From: a virus
Taxonomy: Duplodnaviria; Caudoviricetes
Strand: one strand, 5' to 3'
Length of the DNA stretch: 36,610 bases
Virus record (IMG/VR): IMGVR_UViG_3300012147_000038
Coordinates: 1-36,610 of that record
In this document: piece after piece, positions 26,639-36,610 of the stretch
How positions within the stretch are numbered: the stretch's first letter is position 1
Layout: every line of letters begins with the position of its first letter
Made by a program: the position numbers and the translations under genes
Notes under the pieces: generated by a model
The model's database searches: none
Told to the model about the DNA's origin: nothing
The model's input: the letters and a program-made list of their open reading frames with translations, nothing else

Positions 26639-27344
26639 TTTCGTATAATTTAATTAAGTTAGATACTTGTATAGGGTAAAACTTATTTCCCCTTGAGGTT
26701 TTAAAGCCTCCTTTGTTAAGTGCGTTTGCAATAGCGTTCAAAGAGTGGTCTGGTCGCATCCTAGAAGCCATGGCGTAAGCTCTAACATTGTTTTGGTCAG
26801 CAATGGCCTTAGCTCTTCTTGTTCTCTTAGAACGCTCTCTGGACTCGTCTGAAAGGTTTTGAGGGCTTCCTAATGAAGTAATCCTTTTACCTTCTTTAGT
26901 AATGTGAAAACCATTAACGTCTATATTGTCCTTAATTCTACCTAAAGCATCCTTAACACGTTGCTTAGTTTTATCCTTTTCCTCTTTGGCCACTAAGAAC
27001 TTAATATGCTTAGAGAAAGTCGTATCGTGCGGAGAGTCTGCCTCTATAAAAGGGATACCCTCTTCGTCAAGTCTGGCCATGGTCATAAAACCTGCACGGG
27101 ACAATCTGTCTATGCGGTGTACTATCAGGGTCGCACCGTTGATATTACAAAGGTCTAATGCCCTATCGAAACCATCTCTGACGACGGCACCTCCGCTTAC
27201 TATTTCTTCCTCTATCGCTATTACCGTTCCTCCGTACACACTGATGAACTTTCTTACAGCCTCCTTTTGCACCTCTAAACCGATACCATCCCTTTGACTT
27301 TCGGTTGACGCCCTGTAATACGCTACGTATTTTGTATTCTCCAT
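26631..27344 (-). CDS. Serine recombinase (resolvase/invertase catalytic domain plus short recombinase-type DNA-binding domain)
   Basis: YVAYYRASTESQ catalytic Ser, VSG, HRIDRLSR, C-terminal SLNAIANALNKGGFKTSRG. Confidence 0.92.
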   Translation of the reverse strand: MENTKYVAYYRASTESQRDGIGLEVQKEAVRKFISVYGGTVIAIEEEIVSGGAVVRDGFDRALDLCNINGATLIVHRIDRLSRAGFMTMARLDEEGIPFIEADSPHDTTFSKHIKFLVAKEEKDKTKQRVKDALGRIKDNIDVNGFHITKEGKRITSLGSPQNLSDESRERSKRTRRAKAIADQNNVRAYAMASRMRPDHSLNAIANALNKGGFKTSRGNKFYPIQVSNLIKLYENE

Positions 27345-27368
27345 TTTGATTTGATTTTATTTATTAAT

Positions 27369-27527
27369 TTACTGCCACACTACTTCCGTTCCGTCACCGT
27401 AGTCGATAACTACGTAGTCGGTTTTAGGGGTTATGGCCACGCTGCCGGCCTCCATCGCCTTTAGCTCGTGGGATATTCCCATGTCTAAAAACATATCGAT
27501 CGTTTGGGACATTACTATTACTTTCAT
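27369..27527 (-). CDS. Small hypothetical protein (52 aa)
   Basis: Hand-translated MKVIVMSQTIDMFLDMG...DYGDGTEVVWQ; TATATTTG promoter near 27567-27574. Confidence 0.6.
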   Translation of the reverse strand: MKVIVMSQTIDMFLDMGISHELKAMEAGSVAITPKTDYVVIDYGDGTEVVWQ

Positions 27528-28145
27528 TTTTCTCGTATTATTTTGATTTAACTATTTCGTTCAATACAAATATAGAATAAATAATTGGGTTTAACAAACT
27601 TTATAGCAATTATTTTTAATTTATTTTTAATATGGGTAAAATCTATGGTAAATCTTCTGCCGTATAGGCCGTATCTATTGGCCTCGGGGTCTACTATAGA
27701 TAAAATCTATTATAAAAGAGTTTACTATAGATAAATTCTATGGTAAAAAGTTTTTTGGTTGGGTTATTTTTTGTATATTTACACATGTACTTATTTATAC
27801 GTCTCGAAAACACGGTTCGATAGGTACTTTTTAAAACTCTCGATGAACGGGTAGCAACGATAGAGAGCATGGGTCTAACCTAAGTAAACAGACTCGGTTG
27901 TACTAGAAAGTTTCTAGTGAAGGTTTACAAGTGTAAGGGAAACTGATATTTAAAGATGGCCTAACGTAATCTTTTGATAGCCCCCAAACTGCCAGAAAGA
28001 AATTTTTGGGTAGGGTTCTGTTAGGGAACCTCTGCCAGATTTGCATTTTATATCGCTATCGCTCATTATAAAAAGCAAACCAATACCTTTAATTAGTTTA
28101 TCTTTAATGTAAGTACTGTAATAGGTAAGAGATTAAGTAACTAAA

Positions 28146-28215
28146 TAATAACCTAAGTAAGTAATAACCTAAGTAAGTAATAACCTAAGTAAGTAATAAC
28201 CTAAGTAAGTAATAC
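28146..28215. repeat. 16-bp tandem repeat x4
   Basis: TAATAACCTAAGTAAG at 28146, 28162, 28178 and 28194, then a partial copy. Confidence 0.95.
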
Positions 28216-28255
28216 CTTAACTTAGAATATAACTTAGGAGAACCTCCCCCCCAGA

Positions 28256-28750
28256 CTAGAGAGAAGGAGTACCACTAAAATAAATGTCGGTCACTAAGTA
28301 CTCGACTTCCGTATCAAGGAGCAAGTACAATAAATAATCACTACTATAGAACATTATAGAGCAAGGGTCATTACTATGGCCGTAACCTTGCGAATGTGCA
28401 ACCTCATGCGCCATTATCACTAAAATAACATCTTCGTACTTACCTAGCATAAATGCAGGCCCCTGATTCATGTTTATATACATGCTGTAGTCGAGTCTGT
28501 TGTAGAGTCCTTCGTAGTTGGGGCCAGATATTTTAGGTGTGGTCGGCAAAGAGTCCATAACCTGTATGGTAGATATTTTACTGTAGTCTATATCTATGTC
28601 GTTTGCGCTATAAATAGAATCGAGCTTGTCGAAGTATTTTTGTAGTTGAGGTTCGACTTTGGGTGTTCTTTTCTTGAAGATGTTTATACTCATAGTTCCA
28701 TAAGTGAACATAAGCATTGCCGTAAGTAAATATAAAGTTCTTTTTATCAT
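28256..28750 (-). CDS. Secreted or membrane metzincin (matrixin-like) metalloprotease
   Basis: N-terminal signal/TM segment, HEVAHSQGYGH zinc motif and Met-turn SIMF. Confidence 0.8.
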   Translation of the reverse strand: MIKRTLYLLTAMLMFTYGTMSINIFKKRTPKVEPQLQKYFDKLDSIYSANDIDIDYSKISTIQVMDSLPTTPKISGPNYEGLYNRLDYSMYINMNQGPAFMLGKYEDVILVIMAHEVAHSQGYGHSNDPCSIMFYSSDYLLYLLLDTEVEYLVTDIYFSGTPSL

Positions 28751-28916
28751 ACTTACAATATAACTATTTTTTTAGTATCTTTCGACTATGAGAAAAAAAC
28801 CAACAAAAAAAACAGATAGTACTAAGAAATCTAACAACAAGGTTGCCAGATTGTACAAAAGAAAGAATGCTAGGGTTAAAAAAGCTTTGTCCTTTTCAAC
28901 CCCTAACAATACTAAG

Positions 28917-28988
28917 AACGCCTAAAAGGATTCGAACCTTTATTTGAACCTTCGTAGGGAACTGTTCTTCCATTTGAACTATAAGCGT
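28917..28988 (-). tRNA. tRNA-Arg(ACG)
   Basis: Cloverleaf, loop CTACGAA, GGTTCGAATCC; weak anticodon stem with two T-T pairs. Confidence 0.8.
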
Positions 28989-29000
28989 ATTGGGTAAGAG

Positions 29001-29083
29001 TACTCCGAGTGGGATTCGAACCCACAATCCTTACGGCAATAGGGCTTAAACCTATCGTGTATAGCCATTTCCACCACCGGAGC
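29001..29083 (-). tRNA. tRNA-Leu(TAA)
   Basis: ATAGG-TTTAAGC-CCTAT, long variable arm, A73. Confidence 0.92.
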
Positions 29084-29088
29084 AGTTG

Positions 29089-29162
29089 TACGAGAGGTGG
29101 GAGTCGAACCCACAAATTTCAGGGTCTAAACCTGTTGCCTATGCCGATTCGGCTACTCTCGC
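29089..29162 (-). tRNA. tRNA-Leu(TAG), short variable arm
   Basis: CAGG-TTTAGAC-CCTG, canonical T arm, A73. Confidence 0.85.
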
Positions 29163-29168
29163 ATTAAG

Positions 29169-29243
29169 TGTCAAAGACCAGAATCGAACTGGCGTAACCT
29201 ATTTCACAGATAGACCGCATTTCCAATTATGCGCACAATGACC
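29169..29243 (-). tRNA. tRNA-His(GTG)
   Basis: CTAT-CTGTGAA-ATAG; encoded G-1. Confidence 0.85.
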
Positions 29244-29250
29244 ATGTTAG

Positions 29251-29322
29251 TTAGGGATGGTGGTATCAATCCACCTTCTTCTGGCTCAAAACCAGATGTA
29301 ATAGTCAGTATACTAATCCCCA
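29251..29322 (-). tRNA. tRNA-Gln(TTG)
   Basis: TCTGG-TTTTGAG-CCAGA; atypical T-loop ATTGATA. Confidence 0.8.
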
Positions 29323-29363
29323 AGATAAGCTTATTGACTAATATTGTCGATTATAAGCTTTTG

Positions 29364-29438
29364 TACTACCGACGAGACTCGAACTCGCATTGCACACCTT
29401 GAAAGGGTGGATTCCTATTCCGTTTAGAAGACGGTAGC
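29364..29438 (-). tRNA. tRNA-Glu(TTC)
   Basis: CACC-CTTTCAA-GGTG, canonical T arm. Confidence 0.9.
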
Positions 29439-29484
29439 AAATACACTTCATCGTTATGGCGATTATAGTGTTAACTTAACTTCG

Positions 29485-29557
29485 TCGGGTAGGTAGGACT
29501 CGAACCTACATTCTCCGGCTTCCAAGGCCGGCACGTATCCAATTTTGTCACAACCCG
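29485..29557 (-). tRNA. tRNA-Pro(TGG)
   Basis: CCGGC-CTTGGAA-GCCGG, C1-G72, A73. Confidence 0.92.
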
Positions 29558-29570
29558 ATTGTATTAAATG

Positions 29571-29603
29571 AAAAAAGCCCTCCGAAATTAATCGGAAGGC
29601 TTT
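29571..29603 (-). terminator. Attenuator terminator of tRNA operon C
   Basis: AAAGCCTTCCGA-TTAATT-TCGGAGGGCTTTTTT just upstream of tRNA-Pro. Confidence 0.88.
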
Positions 29604-29628
29604 AGTTTATTATACTAGCTATGGATCG

Positions 29629-29721
29629 TTACTCAAACAATTCCTCACTACCAAACATACTAACTCCTCCCGAGATTCTCGGTTGTTCTAAGAGTTGTGT
29701 ATGTAAGCGTGTTGTTTTCAT
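29629..29721 (-). CDS. Leader peptide C (30 aa) MKTTRLHTQLLEQPRISGGVSMFGSEELFE
   Basis: Hand-translated; lies between promoter and terminator; R/L/H/Q/E/P run matches downstream tRNAs. Confidence 0.8.
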   Translation of the reverse strand: MKTTRLHTQLLEQPRISGGVSMFGSEELFE

Positions 29722-29727
29722 AATAAT

Positions 29728-29758
29728 CAAATATACAAAAAATAATCGTTACTTCAAA
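29728..29758 (-). promoter_or_regulatory. Bacteroidota housekeeping-sigma promoter
   Basis: TTTG (29755-29758) N19 TATATTTG (29728-29735). Confidence 0.85.
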
Positions 29759-29781
29759 ACTTTAAGTAACTTATTTTTAAA

Positions 29782-30117
29782 TTATCTTTTCTTTCTACCG
29801 TTAAAAGTCATTCTTTTACCTACCGATTTATCTCCGGCACTACCGATATTGTAAATTCCCCTAGCCTTACGAGCAGAGGGTATAGTATCTTTTTTAGCTT
29901 GTCTGGCCATGTGTTGAGCTTCGGACTCCCCACGTTTGTTAGCCGGTGACTTACCACTAAAGAAATTTGCCATAGAAGCTTTGGACGTAGCTTTTTCAAA
30001 CTCCGTACCGTACATCTGTGTTGCGTAGTAAGGACTTATAGTCTTACTCTCTTTTTTTTCTTTGCCATTACCCTTACCCTTACCCTTAGTTTTAGGGTCT
30101 GTTTTTTTTCTTGCCAT
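29782..30117 (-). CDS. Small basic hypothetical protein
   Basis: 111 aa, K/R-rich, own TATATTTG promoter at 30144-30151. Confidence 0.65.
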   Translation of the reverse strand: MARKKTDPKTKGKGKGNGKEKKESKTISPYYATQMYGTEFEKATSKASMANFFSGKSPANKRGESEAQHMARQAKKDTIPSARKARGIYNIGSAGDKSVGKRMTFNGRKKR

Positions 30118-30184
30118 TATATCACTGTTTTAACGTTAAGTAACAAATATACAAAAAAAATAAGGGGGCCACTACGACCCATTG

Positions 30185-30256
30185 AATCCAAGACAGGAAT
30201 TGAACCCGTATAGCGCAGCTTTGCAGGCAGGCCCCCTCTCCGTCAGGTTCTTGGAC
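30185..30256 (-). tRNA. tRNA-Cys(GCA)
   Basis: Loop CTGCAAA, U73; weak anticodon stem. Confidence 0.8.
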
Positions 30257-30263
30257 ATAATTG

Positions 30264-30337
30264 TTCGGCAGGTGGGAATCGAACCTCACTCCTTTCGCTT
30301 TTCAAACGAACGCTTCTACCAAGTTAGCTTCTCCCGA
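30264..30337 (-). tRNA. tRNA-Phe(GAA)
   Basis: TTCGT-TTGAAAA-GCGAA. Confidence 0.85.
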
Positions 30338-30344
30338 GTATTTG

Positions 30345-30412
30345 CACACGCCCAAAGAGTCGAACTCTGTTCTAAGGGGTTGGAATCCTCTTGCCTCCAC
30401 AGGCTGACATGC
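30345..30412 (-). tRNA. tRNA-Trp(CCA); alternative register Gly(TCC)
   Basis: GAGGA-TTCCAAC-CCCTT; G73 favours Trp; very short D arm. Confidence 0.7.
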
Positions 30413-30466
30413 ATGTAAAATAATTTCCAGTATATGGCCTTTTATGCTAAATACTTTCCATTATAG

Positions 30467-30551
30467 CGATTAGGGTAGGATTCGAACCTACGATGGGATT
30501 TCTCCATTGGCTTAACAGGCCAGACCGTTCGGCCACTACGGCAACCTAATC
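30467..30551 (-). tRNA. tRNA-Asn(GTT) with long variable arm
   Basis: TGGC-CTGTTAA-GCCA, G73, extra ATGGAGAAATCCCAT hairpin. Confidence 0.85.
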
Positions 30552-30556
30552 GTTAG

Positions 30557-30640
30557 AAGAGGGCAACGGACTTGAACCGTAAGGGATTAACCTCAACACG
30601 TTTAGCAAACGGTTCCGGACACCTACCCGGTTTACTCTCT
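30557..30640 (-). tRNA. tRNA-Ser(GCT)
   Basis: CGT-TTGCTAA-ACG, long variable arm. Confidence 0.82.
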
Positions 30641-30677
30641 ATGCTGTAACTAATTTATGCTACTTTAGTTACATTGT

Positions 30678-30766
30678 TGGAAGAGGATAAAGGAATCCAA
30701 CCCTCACCAGATACTATCCGATGGCCTGGGGTTCAAACCCAGTTCGTACGCAGTACGCTATCCTCC
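30678..30766 (-). tRNA. tRNA-Ser(TGA)
   Basis: CTGGG-TTTGAAC-CCCAG, long variable arm, encoded CCA, atypical T-loop TTGGATT. Confidence 0.82.
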
Positions 30767-30771
30767 ATGTG

Positions 30772-30854
30772 TGGGTAAAGGTGGACTCGAACCACTCCTC
30801 CTAAGAGACCAGATTTACAGTCTGGCTGCTATATCCGAATAGCTTTCTCAACCC
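30772..30854 (-). tRNA. tRNA-Tyr(GTA)
   Basis: CCAGA-CTGTAAA-TCTGG, extended variable arm. Confidence 0.88.
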
Positions 30855-30864
30855 ATTATAAAAC

Positions 30865-30895
30865 AAAAAACCCCTCGCTTGGGGAACGAAGGGTT
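30865..30895 (-). terminator. Attenuator terminator of tRNA operon B
   Basis: AACCCTTCGTT-CCCCA-AGCGAGGGGTTTTTT just upstream of tRNA-Tyr. Confidence 0.88.
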
Positions 30896-30935
30896 ATTCA
30901 ATCAAAATCAAAAATCAAAATTATGAGTTTATAGA

Positions 30936-31016
30936 TTAAGTGCATAAGTTACTCCCTTCGTGCCTGTTATTACAGAACGAATACCAAAAGGAATTATATG
31001 TACTTAATGTTTTCAT
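30936..31016 (-). CDS. Leader peptide B (26 aa) MKTLSTYNSFWYSFCNNRHEGSNLCT
   Basis: Hand-translated; 11 consecutive Y/N/S/F/W/C codons match downstream tRNAs. Confidence 0.85.
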   Translation of the reverse strand: MKTLSTYNSFWYSFCNNRHEGSNLCT

Positions 31017-31020
31017 ATTG

Positions 31021-31051
31021 CTAATATACAACTTTTTTTGTTATCTACAAA
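31021..31051 (-). promoter_or_regulatory. Bacteroidota-type promoter
   Basis: TTTG (31048-31051) N19 TATATTAG (31021-31028); a second TATATTTG box at 31086-31093. Confidence 0.7.
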
Positions 31052-31111
31052 CTTTATAGGTAATTATTTTTTTTTCTGCCATAAGCAAATATAGTAAAAA
31101 AAGTAAAAGGT

Positions 31112-31170
31112 AAAAAGGCCGACACTAAATATTCTATAGAGAGAGTGAGGAGTTGGGTGTTGCCGGCCTT
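31112..31170 (-). terminator. Probable terminator closing tRNA operon A
   Basis: AAGGCCGGCAACAC...GTGTCGGCCTTTTT long hairpin plus U-tract. Confidence 0.55.
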
Positions 31171-31183
31171 ACGGAAAGAGTAG

Positions 31184-31253
31184 TCGGAGTGTGGGGAATC
31201 GAACCCGCATCCACAGAGATATAAGCTCTGATAGCATACCTACGCTCACTCCA
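31184..31253 (-). tRNA. tRNA-Ile(TAT)
   Basis: CAGAG-CTTATAT-CTCTG, GGTTCGATTCC, compact D arm. Confidence 0.78.
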
Positions 31254-31270
31254 ATATAATATAAATTTAG

Positions 31271-31350
31271 TACCTGTCTAGGGACTCGAACCCCAATTCA
31301 CAACTCCGATTACGATTACCAATTTAGAAAAATGGCTCGGTTACACAGGC
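31271..31350 (-). ncRNA. Non-canonical tRNA-like RNA with TCT (Arg) loop and no normal D arm
   Basis: Acceptor GCCTGT/ACAGGT-A and canonical T arm; interior CCATT-TTTCTAA-ATTGG nested inside CCGA/TCGG. Confidence 0.6.
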
Positions 31351-31356
31351 ATGTTG

Positions 31357-31429
31357 TATCTCTGGATGGAATCGAACCACCGTCTCTTGCTTGTAACACA
31401 AGGGCCTTAAACCACTAGACGACAGAGAT
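31357..31429 (-). tRNA. tRNA-Val(TAC)
   Basis: CTTGT-GTTACAA-GCAAG; unusual G32. Confidence 0.88.
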
Positions 31430-31518
31430 ATAAAGGCCACTACTAAAGCAGCGACCTCTGCAAAAGACTTACTCTGGGACACTTCAAGACTTCACGAGAG
31501 GTATAGTAAGTACTGTTG

Positions 31519-31592
31519 AGCATTTTACAGGAGTCGAACCCGTATTCTCTACATTACAAGTGTAGTGCCATTTCCTATTCAGCCAAAAATGC
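31519..31592 (-). tRNA. tRNA-Thr(TGT)
   Basis: CTACA-CTTGTAA-TGTAG. Confidence 0.9.
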
Positions 31593-31597
31593 ATAAG

Positions 31598-31672
31598 CGG
31601 TACTAAGGGGAGTTGAACCCCAAATTTTAACCGAGTGACAGTCGGTTTCCTCTCCAAGAGGCCCATAATACC
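31598..31672 (-). tRNA. tRNA-Asp(GTC)
   Basis: ACCGA-CTGTCAC-TCGGT, G73. Confidence 0.88.
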
Positions 31673-31704
31673 AGATAGTAGATTTCAGTTCTACTGGACT
31701 GTAT

Positions 31705-31780
31705 TGGTAGCAGCGACGGGAATCGAACCCGTGTCTTTGGCTTATGAGACCAAGCTGGAACCTCTCCAGTCTACGCTGCG
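31705..31780 (-). tRNA. tRNA-Met(CAT), initiator-like
   Basis: TTGGT-CTCATAA-GCCAA, C1-T72 mismatch, encoded ACCA. Confidence 0.85.
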
Positions 31781-31783
31781 ATT

Positions 31784-32269
31784 TTAATTGTTTAAAATAT
31801 AATTTAATGTTCCTTTACTAGAAATATTAAATTTTTCCATAGTCTTTCTATAAGACCTATTAATTTTATGAAACTCCTTAACGCTTTTTTGGTCGTATTT
31901 CCTGACAAAAGAAGTTGCATATAATGACTTTTTTATTCTATCCTTCTTAGGAATATCCATCATGTTATCGGAGGCAGACCCTATTAAAATATTGTCCCTA
32001 GAGTTATTCTCGGAATCACCATCTAAGTGTCTAACTAATATACCTTCTTCAAAAATCTTGTTTCCATATTTTTGAAAAGCTTGAAGTCTATGGATAAAAA
32101 TTCTCGTTACCTTATCGTCGAACCTCATATTAAAACTAAGATACCCCTTACTATTCTTAGATAAGGAGAGTTCAGCCACTCTAACACCTCTAACTGAGCC
32201 ATCTAAAGTAACTCTATAACCTCTGTCGTAAGCTTCTATAATTAAAAGCGTTTGTTTATTTTCTTTCAT
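31784..32269 (-). CDS. HNH homing endonuclease
   Basis: IHRLQAF...VRHLDGDSENNSRDNI; start moved to ATG 32269 because MLYICT spans the promoter TATATTTG at 32274-32281. Confidence 0.85.
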   Translation of the reverse strand: MKENKQTLLIIEAYDRGYRVTLDGSVRGVRVAELSLSKNSKGYLSFNMRFDDKVTRIFIHRLQAFQKYGNKIFEEGILVRHLDGDSENNSRDNILIGSASDNMMDIPKKDRIKKSLYATSFVRKYDQKSVKEFHKINRSYRKTMEKFNISSKGTLNYILNN

Positions 32270-32324
32270 AGTACAAATATACAACAATTTTTCGAACTAT
32301 GCAAGGAGTTACTTTATAATATTG

Positions 32325-32397
32325 AGCAAAATGTGGGAATCGAACCCCGTCTACGCATTGGAAGTGCGTCGCTTTGAGCCATTAAGCTACATCTTGC
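32325..32397 (-). tRNA. tRNA-Gly(TCC)
   Basis: ACGCA-CTTCCAA-TGCGT, U73. Confidence 0.9.
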
Positions 32398-32686
32398 ATG
32401 GAGGCTCTCTTTTAAAGTTGAAAGCAGTAAACGCTCTTTTGTTGAGGTAGTAGGATTTGAACCTACGAATCGTTCCCTTATCAGGGGAGTGCCTTAACCG
32501 GACTTGGCCACACCTCAATATTAAAGCCTCTTCGATTTCTCTTTTAGAGACTTTGTTTCTTATTTTCCTTCTGTCTTCGTTGGTGCAATATTCACACCTA
32601 CACTTGTAACGTACATTAAGGTCTTTTAAAGGATTACCTTCTTTAAAGACATTACCTTTTTTATCTTTTCTCAAGGTTCTGCTCAT
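32387..32686 (-). CDS. Small basic CxCxxC protein whose frame runs through tRNA-Ile
   Basis: MSRTLRK...YKCRCEYC; the first ~56 codons lie in the tRNA spacer. Confidence 0.5.
   Translation of the reverse strand: MSRTLRKDKKGNVFKEGNPLKDLNVRYKCRCEYCTNEDRRKIRNKVSKREIEEALILRCGQVRLRHSPDKGTIRRFKSYYLNKRAFTAFNFKREPPCKM
32442..32517 (-). tRNA. tRNA-Ile(GAT)
   Basis: TCCC-CTGATAA-GGGA, A73. Confidence 0.9.
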
Positions 32687-32705
32687 AACATAGTTTCAAT
32701 TTTAG

Positions 32706-32776
32706 TACCCCTAGAAGGTATTGAGCCTTCTTCCACGGTTTAAAAGACCGTTGCATCACCTTAATGCTTTAAGGGC
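32706..32776 (-). tRNA. tRNA-Lys(TTT)
   Basis: ACGGT-CTTTTAA-ACCGT; atypical T-loop CTCAATA. Confidence 0.85.
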
Positions 32777-32797
32777 ATATAAGTATGAAAGGTTATT

Positions 32798-32875
32798 TGG
32801 TGGAAGTCACGGGTATCGAACCCGTCTCACTCTGATTGCAAATCAAAGTCGCCTTGCCTTGGTTCATGCACCCCC
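32798..32875 (-). tRNA. tRNA-Ala(TGC)
   Basis: TTTGA-TTTGCAA-TCAGA, G3-U70, encoded ACCA. Confidence 0.88.
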
Positions 32876-32877
32876 AT

Positions 32878-32907
32878 AAAAAAACCCTCCTTATTAGGGG
32901 AGGGTTT
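32878..32907 (-). terminator. Attenuator terminator of tRNA operon A
   Basis: AAACCCTCC-CCTAATAA-GGAGGGTTTTTTT ending 2 nt before tRNA-Ala. Confidence 0.88.
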
Positions 32908-32933
32908 GTGTTGTAATTAATGTACTATTAACA

Positions 32934-33011
32934 TTACAGCATATAAATCCCTCCCAAGAGCTTCCCGCCCTTAGTTCTGATATCCGTCGCTATGTCTATA
33001 ATTGTGTACAC
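32934..33011 (-). CDS. Leader peptide A (25 aa, GTG start) MYTIIDIATDIRTKGGKLLGGIYML
   Basis: Hand-translated; 15 consecutive T/I/D/A/R/K/G codons match downstream tRNAs. Confidence 0.75.
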   Translation of the reverse strand: MYTIIDIATDIRTKGGKLLGGIYML

Positions 33012-33053
33012 TGAAAATATTCTTTATTTAATGGTTAATATTACTGTCGGTTA

Positions 33054-33085
33054 CAAATATAAGTAAAATAACCATACAAAACAAA
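33054..33085 (-). promoter_or_regulatory. Bacteroidota housekeeping-sigma promoter
   Basis: TTTG (33082-33085) N20 TATATTTG (33054-33061). Confidence 0.85.
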
Positions 33086-33106
33086 TTATATTCAACTTTT
33101 TTTAAA

Positions 33107-33256
33107 TTAAATATCTTTACCCGTCTTCTTTTCTATTTTTTCCTCTACTTTATCTGAAATAAAGTTGAAAAGGGATTGTAAATTCTTGTTGTTTTTTAAA
33201 ACTAAGGCGAAAATAATGGCCCCTAAAACTGCTCCTGAAATAAATGTTAAAATCAT
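33107..33256 (-). CDS. Small membrane protein (49 aa)
   Basis: Hand-translated MILTFISGAVLGAIIFALVLKNNK...; TATATTTG at 33281-33288. Confidence 0.65.
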   Translation of the reverse strand: MILTFISGAVLGAIIFALVLKNNKNLQSLFNFISDKVEEKIEKKTGKDI

Positions 33257-33793
33257 GTGTATATTTTTAAAAGTTAGATACAAATATAGGTAAAAAAATC
33301 CAGTAAAAAGTTTGTCACCACTAAAAAATGTTAAAAATTACATATTTTTGCACTAACTTGTAGAGGTATTTCACTCAAACGGTTTTAAGTCATAGTATAA
33401 TCCGGGGCCTCCGAGCCGAGAAGCAAATCGCTTTTATTTTCGGGGCCGGGCCGTCCGTTTTACGTTTTTCTGCCAAAATTTTTAGCTTTTTTATATGACT
33501 TATGTGTCTGATATTCAGCATACTATGGGTTATAATTGATACCCCCATACTTCAATTTTTTGTAGCTGGTTTTGCCCCGTTTAAAGTATGTTGAACAGGT
33601 GTTTGACAAATGTTATGTGGCTTATGTATCCATTAACTATAGCTTTTGCCTATCCTGAGTTATTGCATGATAGATTTTGTCTATGATGGATGTCCTCTCG
33701 TATCACCGCCACAACTATAAATTTTACCTATCATATACTTTGCCTATCGTTGTTGCCATAACTATAGATTTTGTCTATGATGCCATTGCCCGG

Positions 33794-33840
33794 TATGTGC
33801 TACCTGATATGTGCTACCTGATACGTGCTACCTGATACGT
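33794..33840. repeat. 14-bp tandem repeat x3
   Basis: TAYGTGCTACCTGA at 33794, 33808 and 33822. Confidence 0.9.
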
Positions 33841-33979
33841 TTAACCCGCTTGCTAGTATGGTACGCCCGTGCGCACATACGCCCGCGTGCGCTAATACCT
33901 ATAGTAGCCCACCGATTACCGTTTATCGGATTTTTGTGCATTTCGTCGAATAAATTGTTTAAAATCCTTTTATGTATTG

Positions 33980-33987
33980 TATATTTG
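33980..33987 (+). promoter_or_regulatory. Plus-strand (early-type) promoter -7 box
   Basis: TATATTTG; near-duplicate context with TATGTTTG at 34222-34229. Confidence 0.65.
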
Positions 33988-34024
33988 TAGAGCCGATAGG
34001 CATACGTTCTTTATCATGTTTGTT

Positions 34025-34141
34025 TCTTTATTTGTCCCGGTGTATGGATACCTAGTATGTGTCCCGGTGTATGAGTAACTTTGAAATCTTTATTTGTCCC
34101 GGTGTATGGATACCTAGTATGTGTCCCGGTGTATGAGTAAC
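34025..34141. repeat. 55-bp direct repeat x2, each containing two TGTCCCGGTGTATG units
   Basis: 34025-34079 is identical to 34087-34141. Confidence 0.92.
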
Positions 34142-34879
34142 CTTAAAAGGTCTAAAATTGGCAGTTTAACCGATTTTTGTGCATTTCATCGAATAAATTT
34201 TAAAAATCAAATATGTGTTTGTATGTTTGTAGTGTCAATATGACAAACGTTCTTATTATTATTGTAATTTATAACCCCTATTAAGTTAGAACACCTTGAG
34301 AAAGTGTTTAGGTGCTATCGAATCAGGTAGGCAGGAGGTTTGCAACAACGGATATTTGCCGTGTAAAGCCAACTAGTTTAGATAGGGTAATTAGTGCCAA
34401 AGTGGAGAAATCCTAAATGTGCCAAATTTCTAGTAATACCCCGTTGTTATTTTGTTATTGAATTTGCGTTATAGTTATGCAATCCGCTTCCCATGCAGCG
34501 GTAAAAGTTTGGGGAACTGAAATATTGAGTGGTTCTCATGTGTATAGCATGAGAGGTGTAAAAAATCCGATTAGATATAAAAGTCGGTTCTTATTTAGGG
34601 GAAAGTTCCCATCTTTGAAGGCACGCTCAATTTTCAAGATGTTAGCGATAAAGGCGCAATCCGTCAAAACGGATACGGGGGCAAACCCCGTACAATGGTT
34701 AACTACTATTGAATACCTTGTTGAAAAATAAAATCTAGTACTATGGGTTTTATAGTTTAGACTACTTTAAAATGTACGAAAAGTAAAAAACTATAGATAT
34801 TATACTAGCTAGGTAGATGTAGAAAATATTCTACCTAGCAACTAAACACCTCAAAACGGGGTGTATTTTAAGTTTAAAA

Positions 34880-35302
34880 ATGGCAATATTGCCAAACAAA
34901 TTGTTAAATAATTATATTATGAAAATTAGCACAAAGAATGTAAAAGCCGAAGTTAAAACAGGTAAAAACAAAGGTATGACGACATACAAAAGTCAAGTAT
35001 TAGAGGTTAACCGTGCCTTAAAGAGAGAAAACAAGTCTCTTAGCGGGTGTATTAAATTCCTTTTATGTTTCTCAAAAGAAACAGGATTAGATCCCAACCG
35101 TATTAAAATACTACGTTTTATCCAAAAGGATGACGCTGCATTTAAGTCGTTCAAAAGTATAGTTAGGGTTAGTAAGTCCGGTAACCATAGCCCGTTCTAT
35201 ATATTGCAGACCCTAAACAAAAACCTCTCTGATCTTAACAAGCCGAAGGTAAAGGCAGCACCCAAGGCAAAGGTAAAGGCAGCACCCAAGGCAAAGAAAT
35301 AA
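34880..35302 (+). CDS. Basic protein with histone H1-like PKAKVKAA tail
   Basis: C-terminal PKVKAAPKAKVKAAPKAKK; true start may be a downstream Met; followed by a terminator. Confidence 0.7.
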   Translation: MAILPNKLLNNYIMKISTKNVKAEVKTGKNKGMTTYKSQVLEVNRALKRENKSLSGCIKFLLCFSKETGLDPNRIKILRFIQKDDAAFKSFKSIVRVSKSGNHSPFYILQTLNKNLSDLNKPKVKAAPKAKVKAAPKAKK

Positions 35303-35325
35303 TAATACCAACTCAAGTAGACCAT

Positions 35326-35359
35326 AACCCCTATACTGTAATTGTATAGGGGTTTTTTT
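35326..35359 (+). terminator. Intrinsic terminator
   Basis: AACCCCTATAC-TGTAATT-GTATAGGGGTTTTTTT. Confidence 0.85.
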
Positions 35360-35453
35360 ATTATCACATAAATACCTTATGGCATTGTTCGGTACATCCT
35401 TAAATAATATAGGACGGGGTTCGATTCCCTACTTGCCACTAAAATATACAACT

Positions 35454-35723
35454 ATGTACGCATTAACTGAACACGAAAATTGGGACACGTTTGCAATAAT
35501 GAATGAATACCCTAACAAAGAACTATTAGAAAAACAATTTTTATTTGCCGTAAAGGAAGAGGCAAGCTGCGAAAATGTAATGCCTTCCGATAATAACGTG
35601 GATATAGCAAGTATTATATTGTCCGTGGATTGGGGAATAAGTAAGTACATAGACGTTATATGTCACGACGAAATGGAAGCTTGGGCAGTAAGAATAGAAA
35701 TAAAAAAGATAACAACCTATTAA
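35454..35723 (+). CDS. Hypothetical protein
   Basis: Start moved to MYALTEH because the upstream part is a structured T-arm-like element. Confidence 0.6.
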   Translation: MYALTEHENWDTFAIMNEYPNKELLEKQFLFAVKEEASCENVMPSDNNVDIASIILSVDWGISKYIDVICHDEMEAWAVRIEIKKITTY

Positions 35724-35742
35724 TCAAATAAAAATAGAAACC

Positions 35743-35868
35743 ATGAACAATACAGGAAACGAAATACTAGATCTTTACGTTGCAATGGCTACGTACATAG
35801 TACTAATGGCTTTTGCCTTTACTATGTACAGAGCCTTTAAGAGTTGGTATAACGACACGAAAAAATAA
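35743..35868 (+). CDS. Small single-TM protein (41 aa)
   Basis: Hand-translated MNNTGNEILDLYVAMATYIVLMAFAFTMYRAFKSWYNDTKK; A-rich upstream region. Confidence 0.6.
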   Translation: MNNTGNEILDLYVAMATYIVLMAFAFTMYRAFKSWYNDTKK

Positions 35869-35879
35869 ACAAACTGTCA

Positions 35880-36413
35880 ATGAAACGGCTACTTTTACTT
35901 TTACTTATTATAATCACTACCAACATATCCGCACAGGATAGAGAAACAGAGTTCAAGGTTTACATACCATTAAGAACATATCACTTCGACCAGAACCCCG
36001 ACATGGCTTACCATAATACAGAGGGCGGCCACGGTGTCGTAGGTATCTATAGAAGAACCGATGGTAGATGGTTCAATGACTTACAGGCAGGTGTACTGGC
36101 CAACAGCTACCATAGATTATCTTTTCTATTACAATACGGAGTAGGTAGGAGCATAGGTAAACTGGACATATCGGCTAACTTAGGATTGATTAGCGGTTAT
36201 CAGAATCTATTCAGACCTTACATAAAGACCAACGGTGAATATGACCATAACGGAATGACTAACGACCTCACAACGAACCTACCAAGCATAATGAGGAACA
36301 ATGGCATACTACCTGCTGCAAGTGTAAGTATATCTTATAAGACAGGGATAGTATCGCCCCTACTTGTAATCAGTCCTAATTATCTGAACGCAGGTATCGT
36401 GATTAATTTATAA
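35880..36413 (+). CDS. Exported small outer-membrane beta-barrel-like protein
   Basis: Sec signal peptide (MKRLLLLLL...ISAQ), alternating amphipathic strands, NSY and GLISGY motifs. Confidence 0.6.
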   Translation: MKRLLLLLLIIITTNISAQDRETEFKVYIPLRTYHFDQNPDMAYHNTEGGHGVVGIYRRTDGRWFNDLQAGVLANSYHRLSFLLQYGVGRSIGKLDISANLGLISGYQNLFRPYIKTNGEYDHNGMTNDLTTNLPSIMRNNGILPAASVSISYKTGIVSPLLVISPNYLNAGIVINL

Positions 36414-36433
36414 GACACAGTAAAATAAACAAC

Positions 36434-36610
36434 ATGAAGAAAATACTGTTAATTTTCACTATCAACACAATCATGGCAAGTTGTGCCATAACTAAACAGG
36501 ACAAAATAGAATCGACCGTTGTATCATGGGGGGGTTGTTGTAAGTACGAAGTAAACACGGACGACACAATTACATACTATGATTATACAGTCCAAAGGTA
36601 TCAAGAGGAC
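36434..36610 (+). CDS. Putative lipoprotein (truncated by window end)
   Basis: MKKILLIFTINTIMASC lipobox. Confidence 0.6.
   Translation, partial: MKKILLIFTINTIMASCAITKQDKIESTVVSWGGCCKYEVNTDDTITYYDYTVQRYQED

Follow-up and report, generated by a model that had tools for sequence, protein, structure and literature searches.

Why phages carry tRNA genes is a question of several decades' standing, and the control of those genes has hardly been studied. Both matters are raised by a viral DNA (Duplodnaviria; Caudoviricetes), IMG/VR record IMGVR_UViG_3300012147_000038, whose positions 1 to 36,610 are analyzed here and are referred to as the window. Its minus strand carries 24 tRNA genes in three operons (A, B, and C), each preceded by a promoter, a short open reading frame (ORF), and a hairpin, and a first, sequence-only reading had proposed that these leaders work by attenuation, with ribosomes stalled on particular codons inducing the matching tRNAs. 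The comparisons and folding models presented below indicate that each operon is very probably governed by a predicted ribosome-mediated attenuator that senses slow decoding of the codons that its own tRNAs read.

Organization of the tRNA Operons and Their Leaders

The 36.6-kb window is a phage contig that bears genes for structural proteins, a portal, a terminase, and a serine recombinase on the minus strand. The closest tRNA regions are those of the Cellulophaga phages phi38:1, phi40:1, and Calle (Pervagoviridae) and of Maribacter phage Panino, and these relatives, together with the promoters, point to a host within the Flavobacteriia.

Operon A (31183..32874, minus strand) comprises ten tRNAs, namely Ala-UGC (putative), Lys-UUU, Ile-GAU, Gly-UCC, Met-CAU, Asp-GUC, Thr-UGU, Val-UAC, Arg-UCU (putative), and Ile-UAU. 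Operon B (30184..30854, minus strand) has seven (Tyr-GUA, Ser-UGA, Ser-GCU, Asn-GUU, Trp-CCA, Phe-GAA, and Cys-GCA), as does operon C (28916..29557, minus strand; Pro-UGG, Glu-UUC, Gln-UUG, His-GUG, Leu-UAG, Leu-UAA, and Arg-ACG). With any tRNA of a four-codon box taken to read all four codons, operons A, B, and C read 26, 15, and 20 codons, respectively, which sum to all 61 sense codons with no overlap. ARAGORN called 17 of the genes at its default and 22 at a relaxed score; Ala-UGC (~32874-32798) and Arg-UCU (~31350-31270), both atypical and named by neither ARAGORN nor Rfam, were assigned by hand from their anticodon loops and from a gene at the same place in phages phi4:1, Panino, and phi38:1 and in locus L064. 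The former lies directly 3' of terminator A and the latter after Val. Arg(UCU), at 31270-31350, has a short D arm and a long extra arm. Elsewhere in the array, tRNA-Asn (30466-30551) is 86 nucleotides (nt) long with a long variable arm, Leu(UAG) (29088-29162) is 75 nt long and has no long variable arm, and Ile(UAU) (31183-31254) belongs to a type that is rare in bacteria.

The sequence-only reading had described one layout for the three operons, a promoter followed by an ORF of 25–30 amino acids and a terminator before the first tRNA, and all of these parts are present on the minus strand. The Bacteroidota promoter motif TTTG-N19/20-TANNTTWG occurs six times in the window, relative to 1.03 expected (none of 100 shuffles reached six), and three of the six matches stand ahead of the three leader ORFs. 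Promoter A (33054..33085) is of the Bacteroidota -33/-7 type, with a predicted 5' leader of ~37 nt. At promoters B (31021..31051) and C (29728..29758), the start codon lies 4 and 6 nt past the -7 box, respectively, so that the mRNAs are predicted to be leaderless in B and nearly so in C; this spacing is 4–5 nt in 8/14 class B and 14/22 class C rows of the comparative set described below. According to the available part of the source of the consensus, transcription in Flavobacterium johnsoniae starts 4–5 nt past the -7 box, and most host transcripts are leadered (PMC6847099).

Predicted intrinsic terminators with U tracts lie at 32882..32907 (A; -13.4 kcal/mol), 30869..30895 (B; -14.3 kcal/mol), and 29574..29603 (C; -19.1 kcal/mol), all on the minus strand and all 7–17 nt before the first tRNA. 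They are three of the four top-listed among 18 terminator-like sites in 27000-36610. RNA runs (X1-X5) on the homologous array of locus L038 yielded contigs, which cannot show ends or levels, spanning terminator A (X4, X5) and terminator B (X1, X2, X4). The stem of the L038 terminator C is covered by none of X1-X4; X3 joins across it with 34 letters skipped, as a hairpin artefact would.

Leader Codons Match the tRNAs of Their Own Operon

The central observation concerns the codons of the leaders. Leader ORF A (32934..33011, minus strand) has 25 codons and a GTG start, and its codons 3–17 are all read by operon A tRNAs. In leader ORF B (30936..31016, minus strand; 26 codons), 12 among codons 5–17 are read by operon B tRNAs, and in leader ORF C (29629..29721, minus strand; 30 codons), 9 among codons 5–14 are read by those of operon C. 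The near-unbroken run of operon-matched codons claimed from the sequence alone is thus borne out by counting: within codons 4–14, matches amount to 11/11 (A), 9/11 (B), and 9/11 (C), with binomial P values of 1e-3, 7e-5, and 6e-5 against the phage's coding codons, of which the three codon sets make up 54%, 23%, and 23%, respectively. Only 20 (A), 3 (B), and 2 (C) of 8,664 windows in phage genes reach these scores. When no window is chosen and whole ORFs are counted, matches stand at 19/24, 15/25, and 13/29 (binomial P 0.009, 1e-4, and 0.007).

The matching runs contain a codon for 22 of the 24 tRNAs (8/10 in A, 7/7 in B, and 7/7 in C), the operon A tRNAs for Val and Met being those without one. 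Leader A uses AGA and ATA, which correspond to Arg-UCU and Ile-UAU of operon A, and leader C uses CGC, which corresponds to Arg-ACG, with a single AGA at codon 15 at the edge of the run. As to where leader A begins, its homologue in L064 has ATG in place of GTG, and an ATA start was rejected on the grounds that homologues align gap-free from the GTG.

The Predicted Structural Switch

Three helices are possible in each leader: a 1:2 hairpin, a 2:3 antiterminator (ten pairs with the terminator 5' arm), and a 3:4 terminator. In leader A, folding predicts a 1:2 (protector or pause) hairpin at 32954..32974 and an antiterminator segment that pairs with the terminator 5' arm at 32945..32955. In leader B (30946..30981), the predicted 1:2 hairpin (30981-30957) overlaps the antiterminator segment (30961-30946), and in leader C (29662..29696), the hairpin core (29683-29671) likewise overlaps the segment (29673-29662); all lie on the minus strand. 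The late leader codons proposed to complement the terminator 5' arm are predicted at codons 19–23 in A and 19–24 in B, whereas in C the segment falls in mid-ORF (codons 17–20). Antiterminator pairing exceeds that of shuffled sequences in B (7/300) and C (5/300).

Ribosome position was modeled as a mask assumed to reach 9 nt past the A-site codon, at equilibrium, on RNA ending just before the terminator 3' arm. On such nascent RNA, antiterminator occupancy is ~0.8–0.97 in all three leaders with the ribosome on early codons; it is lost (<0.5) at codon 17 in both A and B and at codon 15 in C, while the matching runs end at codons 17, 17, and 14. A ribosome on the run would therefore leave the antiterminator free, and one beyond the run would cover it. 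Footprint folding, which the sequence-only reading had put forward as a check, thus places the switch point at the end of the run in nascent RNA, but the full transcript flips only in A, where the terminator loses at codons 10–15 alone.

With regard to the default state, the full-length fold terminates, while truncated RNA without a ribosome gives antiterminator occupancies of 0.92 (A), 0.46 (B), and 0.79 (C), the nascent RNA thereby favoring the antiterminator in A and C. Whereas an untranslated trp leader leads to termination (super-attenuation), termination is not clearly the default of this design. As modeled, the switch looks less like a trp-type stall at one site than like ribosome and RNA polymerase racing each other.

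Leader–Terminator–tRNA Modules in Other Phages

Loci for comparison were found through their similarity to tRNAs or through tRNA motifs, without regard to leader content, with a few added via two neighboring proteins (1 and 3 loci). The rule for a module was a U-tract hairpin at most 200 nt before a tRNA and an ORF ending 15–60 nt before the hairpin. A first set gave 140 terminator rows, 53 of them distinct and 40 kept (5 were dropped for want of an ORF, 3 for fewer than three tRNAs, and 5 for more than 15); eight loci with the same sequence as the window were counted as one with it. A held-out set of 40 loci, 12 of which had fewer than three tRNAs, gave 31 rows, 18 of them new and 12 kept (1 was dropped for want of an ORF, 1 for fewer than three tRNAs, and 4 for more than 15). 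All comparative counts use the ORFs chosen by the rule, which mis-picked at L001:4596, L042:5779, L002:6337, and L003:6060 and missed leader A of phi4:1 and leader C of Tenacibaculum phage Gundel_1, errors that lower the match.

Permutation of leaders against operons, a test likewise suggested at the outset, came out clearly in favor of the match. Over whole ORFs, the own-operon match in the 40 rows was 0.42 relative to 0.24 when permuted, and over codons 4–14 it was 0.66 relative to 0.29, with none of 20,000 permutations as high in either case. Under the unchanged rule, the 12 held-out rows gave 0.52 relative to 0.34 (0/20,000). When the 52 rows were pooled and one row was drawn for each of the 14 tRNA groupings, P was at most 0.0005 in all 200 random picks. 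Matches are also positioned with respect to structure, amounting to 329/485 from codon 4 to the switch and 76/382 after it. They are densest from 9 to 2 codons ahead of the switch that the structure defines, where 25–32 of 34 leaders match at each position, and just past it only 5–7 of 36 leaders do so.

The expectation that leader content should co-vary with the tRNA set was likewise upheld, and it extends to groupings other than those of the window. For example, 16 consecutive matches are found in L065 (Pro, Gln, Tyr, Thr, Gly, and Lys), 12 in L080 (Asp, Phe, Glu, and Ala), 18 in L100 (Ser, Trp, His, Ile, Met, Asn, and Arg), and 9 in L106, whose grouping consists of four Ser tRNAs and one Arg tRNA. 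Among class C leaders, a Glu codon is present in 9/9 operons with tRNA-Glu and in 1/10 without it. Where Leu-UAA has moved into operon B (L060, L094, and L097), Leu codons appear in the run of leader B. The Arg codons in the sensing window of five class A leaders comprise five AGR and no CGN. In a swap test of structure, exchanging terminator arms among the leaders of one class weakens the pairing in classes B and C (0/20,000 each). Finally, synonymous changes exceed non-synonymous ones in the seven close leader pairs, with synonymous/non-synonymous proportions (pS/pN) of 0.37/0.11 in A (two pairs), 0.37/0.18 in B (one pair), and 0.41/0.09 in C (four pairs).

The modules are shared by phi38:1 and Calle_1 (Pervagoviridae), phi4:1, phi17:2, phi19:1, phi10:1, Panino, and Gundel_1, where they are mostly unannotated or annotated as hypothetical coding sequences, and these relatives differ from the window in module order, number, and tRNA membership. 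In Panino, a third module was predicted and then found 40 kb away on the other strand, with a matching B-type leader. Phages phi19:1 and phi10:1 carry only C and only B, respectively, at the same genomic position (L006 and L081) with near-identical upstream DNA, which suggests that the leader–terminator–tRNA unit moves as a cassette. In L029, L032, L088, and L093, one leader of 32–51 codons stands before a whole array of 20–38 tRNAs and samples most amino acids. By the same rule, no terminator was found at the array of Sphingomonas phage PAU, and neither leader nor terminator was found at L121 (G001:C9:108500-112500), a chromosomal tRNA array that directly follows a protein gene on a 369-kb contig of a Lacinutrix assembly. 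A scan of species genomes returned L084 as its only locus and is too narrow to judge host chromosomes. Since cultured phages of a laboratory host (phi38:1, phi4:1, phi19:1, and phi10:1) carry the same modules, the proposal is directly testable.

A Model for Codon-Matched Attenuation

Taken as a whole, each operon of the window has a 5' ORF behind a promoter, leader codons tied to the downstream tRNAs, and a predicted intrinsic terminator; a predicted antiterminator that excludes the terminator and is accompanied by compensatory change is found in B and C and does not reach significance in A. In the proposed mechanism, host RNA polymerase would start at the promoter, and a ribosome would load at once, in keeping with the leaderless mRNAs predicted for B and C. 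Fast passage over the 10–15 test codons would bring the ribosome to codon 15–17, where it would cover the antiterminator segment, so that the terminator would form and the tRNAs would remain off. Should the ribosome lag anywhere in the run, the free segment would pair with the terminator 5' arm while the 3' arm has yet to be transcribed, and polymerase would continue into the tRNA genes. With the new tRNAs, decoding would regain its speed, and the circuit would form a negative feedback loop. The attenuation logic of the sequence-only reading is strongly supported by the codon match, by the co-variation of leader with tRNA set and of antiterminator with terminator, and by the coincidence of run end with modeled switch, although that switch resembles a race more than a trp-type stall.

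The codon match is to tRNAs as a group, and the signal sensed would appear to be slow decoding of any cause. What is sensed is probably the tRNA and not its amino acid, because the two Arg isoacceptors sit in different operons (UCU in A, ACG in C) and the leaders mostly respect this division. Depletion of tRNA is the likely trigger: extra tRNA is a better remedy for missing tRNA than for a missing amino acid, and the division of Arg points to isoacceptors. The likely use would be to supply substitutes for host tRNAs lost to cleavage or decay in the course of infection. A codon-matched attenuator, with tRNA shortage as its trigger, would make substitution for lost host tRNA a better explanation than fixed codon compensation of why phages carry tRNA genes.

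A number of observations weigh against codon-matched attenuation. At equilibrium, the full transcript of C favors the terminator wherever the ribosome stands, and that of B does so except at codon 15; the switch therefore has to be kinetic, yet the model is an equilibrium one on truncated RNA. The antiterminator of A in the window does not exceed its shuffles (33/300), nor is the class A swap test significant (1180/20,000). Antiterminator pairing beats 95% of shuffles in more rows (24/40) than control terminators of the same loci (6/39; Fisher P 6e-5), which speaks for the attenuators, but the rows are related by descent, so that Fisher tests overstate independence, and the other 16/40 rows fail at the 5% level. 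L039 and the C leader of L060 have matched codons and no antiterminator pairing by the shuffle test, and L109 is also a miss. Co-variation is less clean for Asn and Leu-UAA than for Glu, and the Arg codons of 19 class C leaders include 18 CGN but also 7 AGR. A frame-blind indel test points in neither direction (14/23 gaps in class C are not multiples of three), and 6 of the 28 held-out loci with at least three tRNAs have no terminator by the rule, some of them being cut by the flank. Lastly, further -7 boxes within the array at 32281, 31093, and 30151 may bypass the switches; the first of these may let six distal tRNAs of operon A escape attenuator A.

Possible Roles and Alternative Explanations

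The same device would respond to tRNA cleavage, host tRNA decay, uncharged tRNA, or ribosome stress. That the attenuators answer the general decay of host tRNA late in infection, or a shortage of amino acids, comes close to an even chance and would leave the mechanism as described. The joint sampling of 22 of the 24 tRNAs by the three leaders fits such a general supply sensor, as does the single long leader before the whole array in four of the loci mentioned above, whereas three separate sensors permit a group-specific answer that a general signal would make needless. In the model, antitermination is favored without any ribosome in A (0.92) and C (0.79), and the tRNA array of Anabaena is induced by general translational stress, as described in the accessible portion of PMC8421152. 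On the other hand, it can be reasoned that lack of an amino acid is not cured by more tRNA, and the tRNA groups of the window cross biosynthetic families and split Arg by isoacceptor. Moreover, the portion of PMC11555353 consulted reports that phage tRNAs allow infection despite retron-Eco7 and PrrC and that this rescue depends on promoter strength.

That defense nucleases are the trigger, making the attenuators an inducible counter-defense, has somewhat less than an even chance, given that any slowdown in decoding would trip the switch. Phage tRNA clusters can replace cleaved host tRNA, as with tRNA-Tyr against retron-Eco7 in T5-like phages and tRNA-Lys against PrrC and PARIS (accessible parts of PMC11555353, PMC11464382, and PMC10264068). 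Expression of these clusters has been put down to a strong promoter, unlike the arrangement proposed here, and the string "attenuat" is absent from the available text of PMC11555353.

More tentatively, the modules could provide surveillance of the host tRNA pool, with codon-specific attenuators detecting which group has been destroyed and switching on the matching set only. The window's groups track the first codon base, being purine-first for 10/10 tRNAs in A, U-first for 5/7 in B, and C-first for 5/7 in C; this grouping accounts for 20/24 tRNAs, and none of 50,000 permutations is as good. The first codon base corresponds to anticodon position 36 and hence to the usual modification at position 37. 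The groups may represent anticodon-loop classes with a common nuclease or modification target; other phages group their tRNAs otherwise. If the surveillance proposal is true, the leaders would constitute a readable record of the tRNAs that are attacked together.

Two further alternatives concern the mechanism itself. A codon sensor acting on tRNA precursor processing or decay, or on Rho loading, rather than on intrinsic termination is improbable: although the dominance of the B and C terminators at equilibrium at (nearly) every ribosome position would suit it, all three hairpins have a GC-rich stem and a U tract directly before the first tRNA, and their 5' arms co-vary with a leader segment, which is the layout of intrinsic attenuators. 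It is more improbable still that the hairpins serve to separate operons, as ordinary terminators or as signals for processing, and that the ORFs are chance frames or small proteins with an incidental codon bias. Operons in series would allow each hairpin to end the preceding transcript, and a codon share above one half makes the match in A cheap. Yet each hairpin has its own promoter and ORF 120–180 nt upstream, leader codons go with the tRNAs behind them across 14 groupings and again in held-out loci, the matches end where the structure switches, and leader and terminator co-vary.

Relation to Known Regulatory Systems

The layout of the proposed codon-matched attenuation is that of thrL, ilvL, trpL, and hisL, leader-peptide attenuators of amino-acid operons in enterobacteria, of which thrL and ilvL are multivalent. 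These leaders (ilvL preceding ilvGMEDA), like pheL, have a short ORF with control codons, overlapping 1:2, 2:3, and 3:4 helices, and an intrinsic terminator before the genes; pheL is described as a leader-peptide attenuator in the available part of PMC3082878. Unlike the enterobacterial attenuators, the modules of the window have tRNA genes in place of enzymes as output, reside in a phage, and sample 7–8 tRNA species per leader, and they differ further in the predicted leaderless mRNAs of B and C and in the modeled read-through of A and C without a ribosome. Another relative is the pheM attenuator of E. coli pheST, whose leader peptide controls phenylalanyl-tRNA synthetase. It resembles the modules in acting on the translation machinery and differs in sensing one amino acid and in producing a synthetase, not a tRNA. 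The T-box riboswitch senses tRNA charging through a terminator/antiterminator switch as well, and it binds tRNA directly and needs no ORF. The leaders of the window are too short for a T-box and carry an ORF, and no Rfam match to T-box was obtained in 27000-36610 at E up to 1. None of the Rfam leader families (Trp, His, Leu, Thr, and Phe) scored above its gathering threshold, with Phe_leader reaching 28.1 bits of the required 55 (E 0.23) on terminator A.

The trn operon (L-array) of Anabaena PCC 7120 is also a tRNA array, near-complete and silent, with a 100- to 1000-fold induction by translational stress under the repressor TrcR (accessible parts of PMC8421152 and PMC10272220). It differs in having a protein repressor acting at initiation, a single operon, and no codon-specific sensing, and neither "attenuat" nor "leader" occurs in the available text of PMC8421152. 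As regards phages, the accessible part of the phi38:1 transcriptome paper (PMC5335546) contains neither "terminator" nor "leader", and that of PMC12482277 contains none of "attenuat", "leader", and "terminator". Full-text searches of open-access PMC and bioRxiv, which mostly omit subscription journals, turned up no paper whose title or opening lines of the abstract point to leader-peptide attenuation of tRNA genes, and none that joins phage-encoded tRNAs with transcription attenuation. The modules would extend leader-peptide attenuation from enzymes to tRNA genes, in a feedback loop whose product is the sensed molecule, and would give ready-made reporters for the depletion of defined tRNA groups.

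Neighboring Genes and Repeats

Several other features lie within and around the array. A gene for an HNH endonuclease (31784..32269, minus strand), with its own -7 box at 32281, is inserted in operon A; in Gundel_1, an HNH gene sits between terminator C and the first tRNA. Between operons B and C, a Lys/Arg-rich gene of 111 amino acids (29782-30117) has its own -7 box (30151) and no PHROG match, and the phi38:1 gene at the same site is annotated as a structural protein. A 99-codon ORF with a Cys-x-Cys-xx-Cys motif (32387-32686) starts after tRNA-Lys and spans tRNA-Ile, its first 44 codons having no PHROG match. A terminator-like hairpin (28872..28903, minus strand) lies 3' of the last tRNA. 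Upstream, a hydrophobic protein of 47 amino acids (33107-33250; phrog_11666) is encoded 5' of leader A in the window, phi38:1, and Panino, and in Panino its stop codon is 6 nt ahead of the leader start. Finally, a non-coding 16-nt tandem repeat (4.8 copies, 96% matches) occurs at 28138-28214 near the recombinase gene, and more repeats lie at 33797-33840 and 34025-34148 near the strand switch; all three are possible origin or packaging signals.

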